Source: Eremomyces bilateralis CBS 781.70
Lineage: Eukaryota
Assembly: GCA_010015585.1 (NCBI GenBank)
Contig: ML975164.1
DNA: 64,000 nucleotides
Reading direction: 5' to 3' (one strand)
The notes under the pieces were generated by a model. The model searched no databases. It saw nothing but the letters and a program-made list of their open reading frames with translations, and was not told where the DNA came from. The translations under genes and the position numbers were made by a program. Shown here piece after piece: positions 31,227-62,619 of the stretch (the first letter of the stretch is position 1; each line of letters starts with the position of its first letter).

Positions 31227-32825
31227 TTAGGTTATATTTATATCTAGCTTATATACGAGCTGGTTCAATATGCGCTCGGATTTCAAGTAGACGTTGATAG
31301 CATCGACCTTGCTCTCATTCCGCTTATACACGTACTTGGCGCTGACTCTCCGTTCCGAGACATACTCTCTATTGGGAGCGGCAGACAAATCGGCGGAACA
31401 TGTCGTGATCGATTGTTGAACGGGCCAGTCCGCCGGTTTCTTGTAGATCTGGATGCCATTCAGTTGGGGGATGGGAGGGTACCCGAGCGGGAAAAGAATC
31501 ACGATGAAGATCGCATCGACATGGGGGGCGTATGGCCGGCATAATGACAACAAAAATCCGGCGGCGATATCATGGGTAAACGCCAGTGGTGTCCGCCCTA
31601 GTCGCATCGTCAAGGTTTTCGGATCCCACGTGGAATTGACGCCTTTGACGTTGGCGAAAGAAACCTCGAAACTGTCGGATGGGTAGGATAAACGGCAGAA
31701 TATGCCAGTTGGCCGTTTATACAAGGAACGGAAATGGCTCACGATGTACAATGATCGGACTTCAGCTTGGGCAACTCGTCTGGGATCCACTGATCCAATA
31801 TAAGAACCCTGATATACACATCGCTCATATATGGATATACCAGGGGTGACTGTTTCTCGAAGATATATCCCGATTTGTTTCGCAAAATTGTTCTCAATCT
31901 GGCATTCGAGGACGCCGGTTTGGATATGTTTTCCGCTAGAATCAGGACCAGTGGGAAACATTGGAAGGCGGATGCTCAGCCCCATATGCGTCATGGTGAA
32001 CGGCCCATGATCAGGGTTGCGAGGGATTGGTATGATATTCGAGGAATTCAGAAAGTCGAATGGTGTCTGTGCGAGGACGGAGACACGGTACGGGTTGGTG
32101 TCCAGATCCCACGCCAAAATCGATTGATCGTCCGAGATCTTGATGATTTCTTCCTGGAGTCGCAAGAACGCCTTCTCCCCTTCTCCATACAAGAGAGGCA
32201 TGTTCACGCCGAAGAGCCCAACGAGGTAGTAGGCCATATCTTCGACACGAGTGGTCTTCCGCTTAGCAGCCCACGACATCCGGCATGCGATGCTGGTCGA
32301 CCACAGGCTGTATGCGTCAACGAGGATTGTTTTGGGTATCCCAGTGATCGTCGAAATCTGATCCGCGAAGGATTCCTTCTCGCCAATATAGTTCCAGTCC
32401 GCATTGTAAAACCCCATGCGTTCCGGTGCAATCAATTCTTGGAGTGTCCATCCTCTCGTGAACCAACGGCCGTTGGAGAGAACGGTCCCGCCCTTTGCGG
32501 GCACCATGTCGCTCAGATAAGCATAACACACCTCAGCATATCGGTACCATTTTAACATGGAATTGATGGCCTCGGAGAGCTCCGCGCTGCTACTCTTATC
32601 GATGCAACATGTGTCAATCCATATATATTCGTATCCATGCTCTTTGGCTTTCTCGCAGACACCGTGAACCTTTGCCCAACCGGCCTTATTCACCGTTCCT
32701 CCAGGCGCGAGGATGTCTTGATATGTGATTTCATCTGTGTCCCAAGTGTGGGAAAGGACAGTATATTGAAGGATGGAGTCGACAAATCCTTTGACCGATT
32801 TGGTGGACGCGTTGAGCAGGCGCAT
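31227..32825 (-). CDS. HET-domain heterokaryon incompatibility-type protein
   Basis: MRLLN, YTVLSHTW, WIDTCCIDKSSSAELSEAINSM..WY, WFTRGWTLQELIAP and MPLLYGEG motifs. Intronless, 532 aa. Confidence 0.93.
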   Translation of the reverse strand: MRLLNASTKSVKGFVDSILQYTVLSHTWDTDEITYQDILAPGGTVNKAGWAKVHGVCEKAKEHGYEYIWIDTCCIDKSSSAELSEAINSMLKWYRYAEVCYAYLSDMVPAKGGTVLSNGRWFTRGWTLQELIAPERMGFYNADWNYIGEKESFADQISTITGIPKTILVDAYSLWSTSIACRMSWAAKRKTTRVEDMAYYLVGLFGVNMPLLYGEGEKAFLRLQEEIIKISDDQSILAWDLDTNPYRVSVLAQTPFDFLNSSNIIPIPRNPDHGPFTMTHMGLSIRLPMFPTGPDSSGKHIQTGVLECQIENNFAKQIGIYLRETVTPGISIYERCVYQGSYIGSVDPRRVAQAEVRSLYIVSHFRSLYKRPTGIFCRLSYPSDSFEVSFANVKGVNSTWDPKTLTMRLGRTPLAFTHDIAAGFLLSLCRPYAPHVDAIFIVILFPLGYPPIPQLNGIQIYKKPADWPVQQSITTCSADLSAAPNREYVSERRVSAKYVYKRNESKVDAINVYLKSERILNQLVYKLDINIT

Positions 32826-33618: not shown

Positions 33619-34790
33619 GTGCTACATCACGCTCGCGGTTTCGAAGGGGAGAGACCGCTGAAGCACAACACGGTCAGATCCTCGCCACGACCGGGGAACA
33701 CGTCCTATAACATTAGCATTAGGCACCTAGATCCCCATACGAACCAAATGATTTTGTGGATGAAGGGGTTCGACTCCAAACTGATGACAACGGACGGGAT
33801 TCCGATGGTAGGACCCAACCACGACTATCAGCACGGCATCGAATTCTGGACGAGGGAGGAAACTTGGCCACCGGAATTCTTCGAGAAGCACCATGGAGCA
33901 AATACTCGCAAGGAAGATGTCGTCGCCATCTCGTCGCCCGAGGAGATTAGAAGTCGGCTCTTCAAAGTTGACTTTAATATAGCTAGCGATCGGAAATAGA
34001 CAGAGGTGAAGAGTGCGTTATATAGGGACACAGGGAATGTACATTTGCTCGAGACTGAAGGCATGTATTCGAAGGAGTCGAGCTAGATGTAGTAGATGAG
34101 AGTAAAGAGATATAGGATCCCAACCGGGCACTCTTCCACGATCGTATATTCAAGACAGCCTGCAAGACCCTAGAGGAAAGGGATGAAGAGAAGGCTATTC
34201 AAACATTTCTGGACTATTCTTTCTATCAGCAGGAGCATTCGCCTTCAACCACACGCCGCCAGGAACCCCGCGAGGGCTGGGATGGCTTGACTCCTCTACT
34301 AGCCTCCGGCCATAACCAGGCTACTACACTATGGTCCGTAGGAGTCCAGCGCAACGCATGTACAGAGAATCGGCTCGATATCTCTCGCCATTCGTTGGCG
34401 ACCTATCCTATTTTATAGCACATACTCTATTTTTCCTTCCCGTTCCTGACGTCTGAGGTGAAATTTGTTACCGCTCCGCTTGACTTCATGGATCGGTAGA
34501 ACGCACAAAGCATAACCGTCTCAGCCGAGTGTCATTGAGCTCTTCCACTTCGTGGAATGGAGAATGAGGTTGAGCGGTAGATCCTGCGTTCCCTATCTTG
34601 TACAACTAGGATTTCGTGCGGATCTATTACCCCATGTTTAACGGGAAATATACAAGATATTACTACCACCAGATCCTAGATCCACGCGTTTAGCATCCTA
34701 GAAGCTGGTAAGGAGAAATGGTCAGCGTAGCAGTTTATGAAGGATGTTTACGACAAATGGATGCCAGAACACATAACCTATCCGCGGATT
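33619..34790 (+). pseudogene. Decayed member of a fungal PD-(D/E)xK-like family (recalled as DUF7924; verify)
   Basis: Colinear motifs across frames: IEFWTREETWPPEFFE, SDRK*TEVKSALYRD, LFHDRIFKTAC, EGWD, SVG..NACTE..SPFVGD, FPFLTSEVK, LDFMDR*NAQS, VRIYYP and KEKWSA*QFMKDVYDKWMPEH. Many stops and frameshifts. Confidence 0.7.
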
Positions 34791-35491
34791 CCCTACATGA
34801 TCGGAGGATTGCAGCACTGATCTTAGATATTTAGAATGTTGTGGCGGTCTTAGAGAATGGTCTAGCGGATTGTTCGGCAATCGATCAGTGTCTACGGCCT
34901 TCTATGCCAAGAGGAATATCAAAACCTGATGGAGGAATATAAGGCGGCACGGTCAGTGCACTTGGAGGCGCTCGCTTTCAGTATTCAGGAATTCCGAGGG
35001 ATCGCGAATGAGAGCGATTTCGCAAACACCGTTACAAAACGTAAAACGTTGGAAGTGTCTTGCGGATTTGCAATGCAACACATTGCGACGAATCTGTGGG
35101 AATATCAGCGAGGAGGAAACTGAGGTCAAGCAGCTCGAAGAGTCACTGAAGAGACGCTAGGAATAGCTACAAGTCTCTCAAGAGGAGGGCGCCTAGATTG
35201 GACTTCGGGTCACTTCGGTAGCTCATCGTCGGGGTTGGATATGGGCGGCATTGGTCCACTGGTGGAGGACGGTCTCGCGAAGCGGGATGGTTGTGAAAGG
35301 TGGTAGAAAGACATGTCAGGTAGATTAAGTAGAAGGAATGAATTGGTCAAGTAGAATAGTCAGTAGGGGAGGAGAGTGAAACCAGCGTATATCCTGTGGA
35401 AAAAATGATGGCCATTCACTGTTTGTTGACATGCTCTCCGGTCGTAGTGATATATATTTAACCGTTCGACTTATCAGTATCCGGGCACCAT

Positions 35492-35705
35492 GGCTGTGAA
35501 TGGAGGGAGCCCGTCTCCTTGGTAATAGTGGTCAGTCATCGGTTGGAAGCCCCGGGTTCGACTCCAGTCGAAGTTACAGTACTTGAATCATGCTTCGGCC
35601 GCTTCTGATAACGATGGTCTGTAGGGCAAAAACCGCTATTACACTACCGGGCGGTTTTTGTAACGTTCCCGCACTTGCGAGGCGTGAGCATTTTTAGCCT
35701 TTTTT
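35492..35705 (+). ncRNA. Candidate structured Pol III transcript or SINE-like element, identity unknown
   Basis: TATA at 35451-35460, A-box-like TGGTAATAGTGG at 35520-35531 and B box GGTTCGACTCC at 35555-35565. The 5' and 3' ends pair (GGCTGTGAATG with CATTTTTAGCC), there are internal hairpins, and a T6 run lies at 35700-35705. Confidence 0.6.
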
Positions 35706-35860
35706 GTATGAATCTCGTGAAGCGGGATGGATTTTGATTAGTGAGTCGTATGTGTATAGTTGATTTCCTTAGTTGAAAGAGGGGAAGATGTGCCCGAGGA
35801 AGGGAATATAAGGGAACAAGAAATTAATAGAGCTCTCAACACCCTGGGGCTTCAGAACTA

Positions 35861-35889
35861 TCAATTCTTCAATTCTTCAATTCTTCAAT
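35861..35889. repeat. Short tandem repeat (TCAATTCT), about 3.5 copies
   Basis: Read directly from the sequence. Confidence 0.8.
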
Positions 35890-35934
35890 CCGTATATCCT
35901 CACACTCCTGTTTCTGTGACTATATTCTTATAAC

Positions 35935-37707
35935 TCATCCTTGACTGGGAACTCTAGCACTACTCCCACCCTCCATTTCCCCATGACCCAAACCAGCCCT
36001 CGCCTCCTTATCCCTCCCCCACGTACTCTCCGCCATAAACGGACTCCTCGCCCGAATCTGCGGCCCCTTCCACACCAACACCACCGGCACGAACGTCAAC
36101 GCTAGCCCCACGAACCCCAACAAGCTCCCCGCCCAGCCGAACCCCAGCGTGTCGAACAACCGAAAGCTCGCGAACGGTAGGAAGGCGGCGAACCCATTCC
36201 GCGCGAGCCCCGCGGCCGATATGGCGGATGCGGCGTACCGCTCGTACGAGTCAGTGAGGTAGTTCGTGACGGTCAGGAAGATGCTGAAGATGCCGACGCC
36301 GGTGCATGCGATGGCGGCGGTGGGGACCATCCAGTGGACCTCGCGGCGGCAGGTCCAGCCGTACCAAAAAAGGCCGCCGGTGAAGAGGGACGAACCGATG
36401 ATGGAGGTGTAGAGGCGGGCTTCGGGTTTGGGGACGCCCGGGTTGGCCTTGTTCCAGCGGCCGGAGTGGAGGTAGATCCAGTCTTGGATGGGGTTGAAGA
36501 GGAGGCCGATGAGGCCGCCGACGGAGATGGCGAGTTGGATGAGGCCGGTGGACATGATGCCGAAGCCGTAGCTGGTGGAGAATGTTTGGACGATGCTGCT
36601 GAAGTAGAGGTAGAGGATGCCCCAGGCGAAGGCTGGACGAGTTAGACGATATGGTGGGGTGGTGGGGAATTTGGACGCACCGAGCCAGAGGGAGAAGAAT
36701 AGGACGACGGGCTCGGTGAATAACATCCGAACCGGGCGTTTGAAGGAGATCTTGATCAATTCCCAGACACCAGTGCGGTCCAGTTCGGCTTGAGCGTAGA
36801 TTCGCCGGCCCGGATTCTCCTTTCGAAGCTTCTTGGCCCGACGCGTCAAGACGGCGTCCCCCCGCGTCTCCCGTAGGATAAACCAAAAGATTGGGATAAA
36901 CCCCGCGTTGTAGATGATTTGCACGTAGAAGATCCTATATCCTCGTCAAACGGGTTCACGGCACCGGTCACGACCCACCTCTCACCATCGCCACGGATCG
37001 TTCCGCTTGATCTGCACAATCGCCGACCCGATAAACGGCCCCAGCGCAATCCCAATTACGCTCGTAAACCCAAACAACGACATCGGTAGGCTCCGCTCCC
37101 CGTCCGTTTGCCACACATCGGCAATCGACCCGCTCACCAGCAAGATCGCCACCGACGAGCCCCCGCCGCCGAAGAACCTCGTCACTACCAACGTCGCGAA
37201 GTTGTTTGCGAACGCGCTGCCGAACAGGAAGACCTCGAATACGAAATACGCGATGAAGTAGCCCGGCATGCGGCCGGAGTGCTCGGTCAGCGGGACGAAG
37301 AGGAGGGGGAGAACCGACGCGCCGATGTTCCAGGTGCAGGTTGCCCAGTAGAGGTTGGGGAAGGGTTGGTTTTGGATGTGGAATTTCGATTCCATGTAGT
37401 CGTTACCGGCGCCGTAGGACCCGGCGGGCAAGCCTGGACGATGTTAGCATGGTTTCAGGGGGTTTGGCCCAGGGGGGTTCCATCATATACCGGTGAGAAT
37501 CGAGACGAAGCACACGGTTATCGTGAGGATCCATTTATAGCTTTTCTTGAAGTTGAACGGATTATCCGGATCATCTGGGCCATACCAGTCGTGGAGCTCC
37601 AGCCTCTCACCGTTACGCTCGACTATGCGAGCGATTCCGTCCTGACCTGCGGGCCCATTCTGAGGAGCCCTGTTCTCAACTTCTCTCGTGGTATTAGAAT
37701 CCGCCAT
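35935..37707 (-). CDS. MFS transporter, DHA1 (drug:H+ antiporter) family
   Basis: WYGPDDPDNPFN, PLTEHSGR, GSIADVW, WRWIF, RETRG, RPVRMLFTEP and PEARL motifs. Introns 37434-37490, 36935-36985 and 36633-36680. Confidence 0.92.
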
Positions 37708-39147
37708 CAGTTTGAATGGCCGGTGGATCGATATTGATTCTGTAAATAAGTGTCGTCGTGCCTCGAGTATGTTAGTGGTATATGCCAAGATTATACAGAC
37801 TTCTACCGCCGTCCGGTGCTCCAGGAGAGCGAGATATTGGCTGAACGGAGTGTATGTGGACGCGATTGGGTTTCATAGGGAAGTCAGATTATATTTTCCC
37901 TTCCTCAAGGGTTAATTATTATGTAGCTTGCCACATTGAAGTTGTAGACCGAGACCACAGGCGATTGCAGACTATCAACTGGTGTTCAGTTCCAACTACA
38001 GGTACGGATATCCCATCGTACAGCAGCTGGGCAGCCGACGTCATGGTTCGCTGACGATCGTCATCACCAACGGTCCCTAATGCTGTGTATCATGGACCTG
38101 CATGGTGTAACTGGCGCCAATTTTTGCATCTATGACGATACGCATCAATCTGAATGAGACTCAATTCTAGAAATTCGTAGATGATCGCCATGACTATAAT
38201 AAAGGAATTAAGGAAACGACATTGTTGACTTGGAATGGGAGATTTGTTGAGGTGATCGGCTTGTCTCCACACACTCCTCTTAGTGAGTTCTCACCATGTT
38301 GATCAAAGAGCAGGCGATGAGTTCAACATGATACAAACACCGACAGAATGGGGCTTTTACATATAGAGCTTGTACTATGTACGGCAGCGATTCCAAAAAA
38401 TCGACTCGATCTTCGTTCAAGTCGTACGACGAGATGGTGGCTGAGCAATGGATGGGAATTGGGAGTCTGGAACTTAGGAACGCCAGCACTCCTTTCATCC
38501 AATTTTACTATGCACTAAGCCGCTCTGGTGGAATCTAAGCAATGTAAACAATATTGGCATTGCTTACTATTGTATGATACACATTAAATTAGGATAGAGT
38601 TTGGTTCATAATTGTTAGCGTCATATCTAACCAATTTACTGCAAACTCATTGGCTAGAGCCAGCTTTGTTTTCTTAGACCGAACCGCCTGAAGTACAGAA
38701 CGGCGGTGACAAAGGAAATTTGTGGTCCAAATGCAATCCACCTCCCACTCCTCACTAAAATCCTAATCAGATCCTCCTCCCTTCGATCTTTTAATCTGTC
38801 CCCCCTGATTGCTGTTTTTCGTGAAGTATTCCTGTTAATACGGCCATTGTTGGGGCGAGGAGAGAATTTCTGCTTGGATTCTGCTTCAATTGCTGGATTT
38901 TAGGTGGTACTTCTCTGCTGTTGGAAGTTTCCAACTTTATTTCGCCTTCCTAGTTCCCAGCCGAATTCGGATTCAACATCTGCCGGTTGGAAGATCTAAG
39001 GTATGTATTGGTTCTAGATCCTTTATCAAGGTGTACAGGTATTGACGATCCCATTTCACAGCTGGACGCACCGTCTCCTTGACTTCGCATTTCGGTATAC
39101 GACCGTCGTCCACGGAATCCGTCCATCTCCGACATCCTACCGCCACC

Positions 39148-61477: not shown

Positions 61478-62619
61478 CTAATATTTAGTATACCAGCCCT
61501 TTGCCTCAAGTACAGCCTGCAGACGACGCGGTAAACTCTCAATTAGCGCGTTTACCTTGTCTTGGCCGATGGAATCCCAGGCCTCTATTATTGCGCGCAT
61601 CATCTTGATCCTATCGACCTGGTTATCCTTTAGACTACCAAAATCTGGGTATTTTCGGTGTAAATAATCTTTCATCTGCTTCCAAATGTGCTCAATTGGA
61701 TTCAGGTCTGGGCTATGAGGTGGCCAATCGATGCAAGCAATCTGATGGTCTTGGAACCACCTAGTCGACAACTTTGAGGTATGAATCCGCGCGTTATCTT
61801 GNNNNNNNNNNNNNNNNNNNNNNNNNNNNNNNNNNNNNNNNNNNNNNNNNNNNNNNNNNNNNNNNNNNNNNNNNNNNNNNNNNNNNNNNNNNNNNNNNNN
61901 NNNNNNNNNNNNNNNNNNNNNNNNNNNNNNNNNNNNNNNNNNNNNNNNNNNNNNNNNNNNNNNNNNNNNNNNNNNNNNNNNNNNNNNNNNNNNNNNNNNN
62001 NNNNNNNNNNNNNNNNNNNNNNNNNNNNNNNNNNNNNNNNNNNNNNNNNNNNNNNNNNNNNNNNNNNNNNNNNNNNNNNNNNNNNNNNNNNNNNNNNNNN
62101 NNNNNNNNNNNNNNNNNNNNNNNNNNNNNNNNNNNNNNNNNNNNNNNNNNNNNNNNNNNNNNNNNNNNNNNNNNNNNNNNNNNNNNNNNNNNNNNNNNNN
62201 NNNNNNNNNNNNNNNNNNNNNNNNNNNNNNNATTTGCGGTAGTATTTGGACCCCCGGAGCGCGCGTTTGACGGTCGACTTGGACGGGGTGCCTTGGTCGC
62301 ATGTGAGGGACCGCGCCAGCTCGTTGTGCGTGACCTTCGGGTTTTTTTTAATTTGTTGTTGAAGATATCGGAAGTCAGGTTCCGTGATCATCTTGGTACG
62401 GTGTCCTTTTGGGAGAGACTTGAATGTTCGTTGCGTACGGAACTTCTCAATTGTATAGTCGATGGTTGAGGGCGAGCATCCGACCTCGCGCGCAATCGCT
62501 CGTTTAGACATTAAGCCCGCGTCGACCATTGCAATGATTGCAGATCGCTGTTCTGGCGTAAGATCTGCATCCTTACGCCGATTCCCGCTAATTTCACCCA
62601 AAATTGAGCGTTCCATCAT
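61478..62619 (-). CDS. Tc1-family transposase; the middle is hidden by an assembly gap
   Basis: N-terminal HTH (RAIAREVGCSPSTI). QDNARIH...WPPHSPDLNPIEHIW has 34 residues between D and E. Ends GWYTKY*. Confidence 0.9.
61802..62231. other. Assembly gap (430 N)
   Basis: Run of N inside the transposon. Confidence 1.

Follow-up and report, generated by a model that had tools for sequence, protein, structure and literature searches.

The + strand segment at 35451–35705 carries Pol III-type signals in order and is a candidate for a genuine orphan unit transcribed by Pol III. Judged from its sequence, the unit would have a tRNA-type (type 2-like) promoter and would lie downstream of an MFS transporter gene on the opposite strand, approximately 230 nt from its stop codon. 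This reading is the preferred one and is put forward tentatively, at a confidence that falls a little short of even. The main rival is a chance arrangement of motifs, which we regard as credible if on balance doubtful. What can be observed directly at the locus are the motifs, their geometry, their rarity in the window (the whole 64-kb stretch of Eremomyces bilateralis CBS 781.70 DNA that was analysed) and the presence of the locus in a contig from a cDNA run. The initial annotation had described an unidentified, highly structured Pol III unit, possibly of SRP origin. Its Pol III unit stands as a candidate, with the signals in order, while the high degree of structure and the SRP origin are not supported.

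The candidate is located within a stretch of approximately 3 kb (~32.9–35.9 kb) that is free of long open reading frames according to the ORF list and Pfam, with a HET-domain gene on one side and the MFS gene on the other. Every stop-to-stop frame from 34000 to 35935–35950 is at most 100 aa in length. The MFS gene, whose stop codon (35935–35937) lies ~230 nt from the T6 run of the candidate, is interrupted by short GT..AG introns, one of which is a 48-nt intron at 36633–36680. The exon upstream of its last exon matches MFS_1 in Pfam (2.5e-13). Taken together, the HET-domain ORF and the intron-split MFS gene suggest a filamentous ascomycete. The features of the locus and its neighbors are collected in Table 1.

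Table 1. Coordinates, strand and basis of the features of the candidate locus and its surroundings in the window.
Feature	Position	Strand	Basis and remarks
HET-domain ORF	31227–32825	-	Pfam HET, 6e-12
TATA-like element TATATATTTA	35451–35460	+	Sequence reading; ~18–27 nt 5' of the predicted start
Left edge of contig match	35475–35477		Contig alignment; a few nt from the start predicted by the TATA-like and A-like boxes
Loose A-box-like element TGGCTGTGAATGG (TRGC...GG)	35491–35503	+	Sole TRGCN5-8GG match in 35461–35556
208-nt RNA of the initial annotation, ends paired at 10 of 11 positions	35492–35699	+	Fold z -1.23; equalled by 25 of 200 shuffles
Long imperfect hairpin carrying the B box near its apex	35522–35642	+	Minimum-energy (MFE) fold
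Exact B box GGTTCGACTCC	35555–35565	+	Consensus match; 64 nt from A-like box start to B box start
Hairpin, 10 perfect bp and 1 G-U, 14-nt loop	35626–35661	+	Arms 35626–35636 and 35651–35661
First T5 run	35654–35658	+	Likely first Pol III stop; RNA ~167–181 nt
Second T5 (35691–35695) and T6 (35700–35705)	35691–35705	+	Possible read-through stops; RNAs ~200–228 nt
MFS transporter last exon	35935–36632	-	ORF; stop codon 35935–35937

Promoter-type and terminator-type signals

The exact B box, the TATA-like TATATATTTA and the T6 run that the initial annotation had reported are all present at the positions given in Table 1. Exact B boxes are rare in the window: two are found where 0.21 would be expected, at least two were obtained in none of 100 shuffles, and the second is located at 33767 on the same strand, 1.8 kb upstream of 35555. 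This excess counts against a chance arrangement. If up to one mismatch is allowed, four B boxes are observed against an expectation of 6.27, that is, there is no enrichment, and this count agrees with chance. TATAWAW and T6 are rare in the window as well. TATAWAW occurs 16 times on the + strand and 21 times on the - strand, and T6 runs occur 19 times on the + strand and four times on the - strand.

The A box is less well defined. The strict core TNGNNNANNNG, as defined in the text of PMC11724288, was sought in 35461–35556 and is absent. A better candidate than the A-like element of the initial annotation is the loose match TGGCTGTGAATGG. This element does not have the conserved A at the equivalent of tRNA position 14, and the loose form TRGCN5-8GG occurs at a frequency of one per 719 nt in the window. 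The looseness of the match is a point for the chance reading.

With respect to 35478, the TATA-like element begins 27 nt upstream and the A-like box begins 13 nt downstream, with the A-to-B spacing given in Table 1. This spacing fits a type 2 Pol III gene preceded by a TATA box, and in some fungi Pol III genes are known to have such a box upstream. A TATA-like box 60–130 nt upstream combined with a T6 run no more than 200 nt downstream is found for 0.11% of + strand positions, every one of them within the candidate; on the - strand the share is 0%. An ordered composite of TATAWAW, TRGCN5-8GG, B box and T5 with the spacing of a tRNA gene occurs once in the window, at the candidate locus. With an exact B box, the composite was present in none of 300 simulated 128-kb sequences, whether the simulation followed the whole-window composition or the local composition; these were first-order Markov sequences, in which the patchiness of real intergenic DNA is not reproduced. 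With one B-box mismatch, and with composite definitions that in every case were chosen after the locus had been seen, the count was 0 of 300 for the whole-window composition and 1 of 300 for the local composition. Thus the Pol III-like signals recognized in the initial annotation are present in a sensible geometry, and their arrangement is suggestive, not conclusive, of something beyond chance.

From these signals a mode of expression can be proposed. TFIIIC would bind the exact B box, aided by the degenerate A box at 35491–35503, and the TATA-like element would position TFIIIB/TBP. Pol III would then be expected to start near 35478–35492. The first T5 run, a putative terminator, would end the RNA at ~167–181 nt, and read-through would bring the polymerase to the T5 or T6 of 35691–35705 for an RNA of ~200–230 nt. 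The predicted product would consist of a head that holds a tRNA-type promoter without being a tRNA itself, followed by a body that has no relation to tRNA, and it matches no family in Rfam. The initial annotation had cautioned that internal T5 runs could terminate Pol III early. The caution is apt, as the transcript would probably end at 35658, and the internal T5 runs speak against the 210-nt RNA as it was first drawn, a point for the chance reading.

If the locus is a chance arrangement, it is ordinary intergenic or 3'-UTR DNA in which T runs and an AT-rich patch happen to lie near an 11-mer of B-box sequence, and any RNA from it is a Pol II product, namely MFS 3' UTR, read-through or antisense RNA. 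Against it stands the ordered composite, which with an exact B box appears in no simulated sequence and nowhere else in the window. The orphan Pol III unit has its own difficulties in the looseness of the A box, the absence of a fold signal, a family or relatives, and an RNA cover that is ambiguous.

The pair of exact B boxes also brings to mind an extra-TFIIIC site of the ETC or COC type, at which the B box at 35555 would bind TFIIIC without productive Pol III and would serve a chromatin or boundary role, maybe together with the B box at 33767. We consider this improbable. Both B boxes are on the same strand and both lie in the ~3-kb stretch between the HET-domain and MFS genes, and ETC sites are described as intergenic with a B-box-like consensus (PMC3395662), a likeness to the sites of budding yeast (ETC) and fission yeast (COC) that here includes another exact B box at a distance of 1.8 kb. 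However, the yeast ETC sites, as far as the available text of PMC3395662 describes them, carry a 10-base extension, likewise conserved, beyond the 3' end of the B box, tend to separate divergent genes and recruit no Pol III. The regions around 33767 and 35555 have only a 13-mer in common, and no further likeness was found 3' of it or elsewhere. Around its B box the candidate has a TATA-like box, an A-like box and T runs, all of which would be superfluous to an ETC site. In the portions of the literature that were available, the search found no ETC site described for Pezizomycotina.

Predicted fold and known RNA families

The pairings drawn in the initial annotation are all found in the sequence. 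The two ends (35492–35502 and 35689–35699) pair at 10 of 11 positions, with two G-U pairs and one T-T mismatch, 35539–35547 pairs with 35563–35571 to form nine base pairs, of which two are G-U, and the hairpin at 35626–35661 is present with the first T5 run in its 3' arm. The conclusion that the RNA is highly structured was not borne out. For eight choices of ends, both strands included, the minimum-energy z-scores ranged from -1.23 to +1.99, and the 214-nt full-length fold (z -1.17) was equalled by 26 of 200 shuffles. The best scores came from two sub-hairpins whose ends were picked post hoc: 35620–35668 (z -2.53, with 4 of 200 shuffles as stable) and 35516–35650, which encloses the long hairpin and is not significant (z -1.79, with 10 of 200 shuffles as stable). 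The hairpins at 35522–35642 and 35626–35661 compete for the same bases and are mutually exclusive. Perfect 10-bp hairpins with loops of 3–30 nt occur twice in the window compared to a mean of 1.7 in 30 simulations, which is the chance rate. The candidate RNA is not measurably more structured than expected. Fold energies no better than those of shuffles and hairpins at the chance rate both agree with a chance arrangement.

A search of Rfam identified no matches in the whole window at the gathering score, nor at E<=10 in 35350–35800 or in 33900–35500; the E-value was scaled by 4227 families, such that a very weak likeness would go unlisted. The Rfam tRNA model did not match the head of the candidate at the gathering score or at E<=10. 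ARAGORN found no tRNAs in the whole window with default settings and none in the candidate region with introns allowed. The initial annotation had noted that the hallmarks of known RNAs were missing, and the Rfam and default ARAGORN results bear this out. The lack of a family match is also a point in favor of chance.

The head of the candidate shares with tRNA genes an exact B box, which is the consensus of the T loop, and, spanning the A-like box, a GGCU...AGCC hairpin that resembles a D arm. It differs in the position of the first T run, which comes 88 nt past the B box instead of directly after an acceptor stem, and in that neither a default cloverleaf nor an Rfam tRNA match is obtained. 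When the ARAGORN threshold was relaxed to -ps85, a weak 86-nt "tRNA-Tyr" cloverleaf was called at 35492–35577. That setting gave 16 calls over the 64 kb, this one included, and -ps80 gave 59, which puts the cloverleaf at the level of noise. The 64-nt A-to-B spacing prompted consideration of a tRNA relic with a 20-nt intron, which was rejected when no acceptor or anticodon stem could be drawn by hand.

The initial annotation had raised an SRP-derived RNA lacking the S domain. Such an SRP (7SL) derivative, reduced to the 5' and 3' ends of Alu type, is very improbable, as is a SINE of 7SL origin. The likeness to fungal SRP RNA consists of a UGUNR motif near the 5' end (UGUGA at 35495–35499, within GGCUGUGAAUGG), two ends that can pair, and Pol III-type signals. 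UGUNR is described as universal in fungal Alu domains (PMC4605306), but with five nucleotides and two free positions it carries little weight. Helix 8, with its symmetric and asymmetric loops, is given in the same source as a defining and universal feature of SRP RNA (PMC4605306), and neither it nor the S domain is present in the candidate. None of the Rfam SRP models matches at E<=10 or at the gathering score, and the internal promoter element is a B box of the tRNA type. In addition, PMC13023118, in the part that was available, describes 7SL-derived SINEs only from supraprimates and hagfish. With no Rfam match at E<=10 and the helix 8 domain missing, the SRP derivation is not supported.

The hairpin next to the first T run invites a comparison with the Pol III-transcribed milRNA precursors of Neurospora. 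By this analogy, the candidate would be a functional, lineage-specific Pol III RNA, for example a milRNA-like precursor in which a tRNA-type head drives a downstream hairpin in the manner of milR-4 or milR-1; on present evidence this is improbable. The B box, the TATA-like element with T6 and the ordered composite would all suit such a gene, as would the ~167–181 nt to the first T5 and the position of that T run at the 3' arm of the hairpin. According to the available description, Neurospora pri-milR-1 is an intergenic RNA of ~170 nt that has TATA-like elements and, just 3' of the milRNA, a cluster of T, and that has no A or B box (PMC3547838), whereas milR-4 is cut by RNase Z from a Pol III transcript that contains a tRNA (PMC3547838). 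The candidate resembles the pri-milRNAs so described in being intergenic, in the ~170 nt to the first T cluster, in the TATA-like element and in the hairpin beside a T run, and it resembles milR-4 in its tie to a tRNA-type promoter. In contrast to milR-1, it has an A-like box and an exact B box; in contrast to milR-4, which is made with real tRNAs cut by RNase Z, its head is not a tRNA and its hairpin has 11 bp. Since the head is not a foldable tRNA, processing by RNase Z or RNase P is doubtful. The clean hairpin comprises just 11 bp, and the long one is imperfect with a z-score that is not significant.

Contigs from a public sequencing run

Contigs from one public sequencing run (X1), the kind of which could only be guessed, were compared with 34000–38000. 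From one contig a 57-nt intron with CT..AC ends is missing, and at the 48-nt GT..AG intron of the MFS gene the contigs break off on either side. Such spliced contigs indicate that the run holds spliced cDNA. A single 5,630-nt contig covers 35475–36633, which takes in all of the candidate together with the last exon of the MFS gene, and then runs on for ~4.4 kb in sequence unlike the window. It is the only cDNA contig over the candidate, and its continuity with the last MFS exon favors the chance reading. The regions 34746–34992 and 35126–35474 have no contig cover and were left out as evidence. The contigs give no strand, start, end or level for an RNA. The source of the cover may be the 3' region of the MFS gene, antisense RNA, the candidate itself or transcription by Pol II, or else a structural variant or a chimeric contig.

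The left edge of the contig match lies close to the start that the TATA-like and A-like boxes would predict. We note the coincidence, which does not prove a start. The same position also resembles a + strand 3' splice site, with TTAAC at 35458–35462 followed by CAG. The 30-letter loose end of the contig at 35475 was sought in the window, with up to three mismatches and with words of 10–12 letters, and was not found; an upstream exon within the window is therefore excluded. An intron at 35125–35477 that would join the contig at 34993–35125 to the candidate was rejected on the grounds that the upstream letters of the contig itself differ from that exon. The edge at 35475 could equally represent a transposon insertion or a rearrangement in the sequenced strain, or a chimera.

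Repeats, relatives and significance

The initial annotation had left open a SINE, and this option did not hold up within the window. A comparison of the flanks (35440–35492 against 35655–35735) for a target-site duplication identified one shared 5-mer, which is less than is usual for shuffles, 314 of 500 of which had words of at least 6 nt in common. No second copy of the candidate is present in the 64-kb window. No A/T-rich or repeat tail abuts the candidate, where the T runs are followed by unique sequence, and the nearest simple repeat, (TCAATTCT)3, starts ~155 nt beyond the end of the candidate. Membership of the SINE class is not shown, two of its defining features having failed where they were testable.

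Two repeats near the candidate were evaluated as possible duplications. An 18-nt direct repeat (35273–35290 and 35713–35730, one mismatch) has only these two matches in the window even when up to three mismatches are allowed. It was rejected as a retroposon duplication because the left copy is located 200 nt upstream of the promoter, a misfit for a Pol III retroposon. The 10-mer CGTATATCCT occurs at 35386 and 35891 and might have bounded a 495-nt element ending in (TCAATTCT)3; here the T runs would stop Pol III earlier, and a 10-mer repeat of this kind is expected by chance about once per 1.5 kb by our own estimate.

The closest published comparison is AfuSINE2 of Aspergillus fumigatus. In the account available (PMC5063351), AfuSINE2 elements are 140–493 bp in length and have degenerate A and B boxes, and their body, unrelated to tRNA, precedes an oligo-T tract. 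They do not fold as a cloverleaf, are of low copy number with some in single copy, and have target-site duplications of 4–14 bp (PMC5063351). By this description, the candidate has in common with AfuSINE2 its occurrence in Pezizomycotina, its size range, a degenerate A box combined with a better B box, a body of non-tRNA sequence that leads up to an oligo-T tract, and a head that is not a cloverleaf. It differs from AfuSINE2 as described in that it has no flanking duplications. It further differs in having no abutting A/T-rich or repeat tail and no Rfam tRNA match for its head. By analogy, the build of the candidate resembles AfuSINE2-type elements and the Pol III small-RNA precursors of Neurospora, and membership of either is not claimed.

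A scan of metagenomes with the 5' motif and the B box returned seven loci. Five of the seven were aligned to the candidate and have only the columns of the search pattern in common with it, three of these five being small and tmRNA-like by eye. ARAGORN placed four of the seven, including both of the loci that were not aligned, in or beside tRNA genes. No relatives of the candidate were recognized among the seven loci, in agreement with the chance reading. A search of the literature for the motif strings gave nothing relevant among the matches listed.

A more specific form of the orphan Pol III unit can be envisaged as a single-copy, lineage-specific gene of an undescribed family. A tRNA-derived promoter head made up of the TATA box, the degenerate A box and the exact B box would drive a 170–230-nt RNA, the body of which would be the working part, perhaps as a milRNA-like precursor comparable to Neurospora milR-4, or as an RNA acting on the convergent MFS transcript, whose 3' region may overlap. 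This form is unlikely as the evidence stands.

What the locus means depends on which of the readings is correct. If the arrangement is due to chance, it would serve as an example that Pol III genes called from motifs by eye need to be checked for copy number and RNA. If only the B box matters, the pair of B boxes 1.8 kb apart would provide a lead to sites at which TFIIIC organizes the genome in Pezizomycotina. The preferred reading, an orphan Pol III unit, bears on a sparse catalog: few Pol III products have been recorded in filamentous fungi beyond tRNA, 5S, U6, SRP and RNase P RNAs. The recorded exceptions comprise SINE-like elements that are tRNA-related and of low copy number, together with milRNA precursors made by Pol III, and they have been discovered organism by organism. 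If confirmed, the candidate would be one more extra Pol III unit and would supply a compact candidate promoter and terminator cassette in the host.

Sequence features around the candidate Pol III unit

The putative Pol III small-RNA unit (35451–35705, + strand) carries an exact B box at 35555–35565. A second exact B box is found on the same strand, and the two sites compare with 0.21 expected in the window. Likeness between them is limited to one 13-mer. The second site is preceded by TATAA and TAGC...GG at approximately 50–60 nt; no T run was found within the 360 nt inspected downstream. The features are collected in the table.

Features identified around the candidate unit and in the MFS transporter gene
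Feature	Coordinates	Strand	Remarks
Second exact B box, GGTTCGACTCC	33767–33777	+	1.8 kb upstream of the first
18-nt direct repeat, TCTCG[C/T]GAAGCGGGATGG	35273–35290 and 35713–35730		Copies 440 nt apart
Microsatellite, (TCAATTCT)3	35861–35892		MFS 3' region
MFS intron, 48 nt	36633–36680	-	GT..AG, CTAAC branch site
MFS intron, 57 nt	37433–37489	-	Skipped by a cDNA contig of run X1

The copies of the 18-nt direct repeat flank the candidate together with 200 nt on its upstream side. With up to three mismatches allowed, the whole window contains two matches versus 0.13 expected, and the repeat is longer than can be attributed to chance. It may be a duplication derived from an insertion or else a repeated binding site. 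Elsewhere in the window, 430 N occur in succession (61802–62231), representing either an assembly gap or sequence that was withheld.

Of the seven metagenome loci returned by a scan for the 5' motif and B box of the candidate, L001, L003 and L006 each contain a sequence of approximately 85 nt (1501–1590) with a tmRNA-like 5' start and a T arm and CCAC at the finish. ARAGORN made no calls on these three sequences. Bacteria or phages may be the source of these sequences, as small genes of tmRNA-like or tRNA-like type; they are unrelated to the candidate Pol III unit.

The MFS gene and a long contig

Since retention of the 48-nt MFS intron leaves the reading frame open, the raw MFS ORF runs through it. 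Beyond the coding region, the exact 10-mer CGTATATCCT adjoins the end of the microsatellite (35891–35900) and has another copy 505 nt upstream (35386–35395); its recurrence there is probably due to chance.

Run X1, a public sequencing run containing spliced cDNA, yielded a contig of 5,630 nt that matches 35475–36633 and, past the 35475 edge, continues for approximately 4.4 kb with no counterpart in the window. Mean depth is 280 on this contig and 39–43 on those covering the upstream MFS exons, a ratio of about seven. The absent sequence and the elevated depth suggest that the sequenced strain differs structurally here, that a transposon has inserted or that the contig is chimeric.

A deeply covered stretch

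A 156-nt contig of run X1 covers 133 nt of the window (34993–35125) at a word depth of 934, the maximum within the 4 kb compared, and its left end directly abuts the sequencing adapter. A search of Rfam covering this stretch gave no matches at E ≤ 10, and a Pfam search with an overlapping 85-aa frame likewise gave none. The minus strand does not fold better than shuffled sequences (z = -1.13); the plus strand does (z = -2.58), with 3 of 200 shuffles equally good. Judged by fold energy, this stretch outranks the Pol III unit as an RNA candidate, and it may represent a small structured RNA of high abundance.
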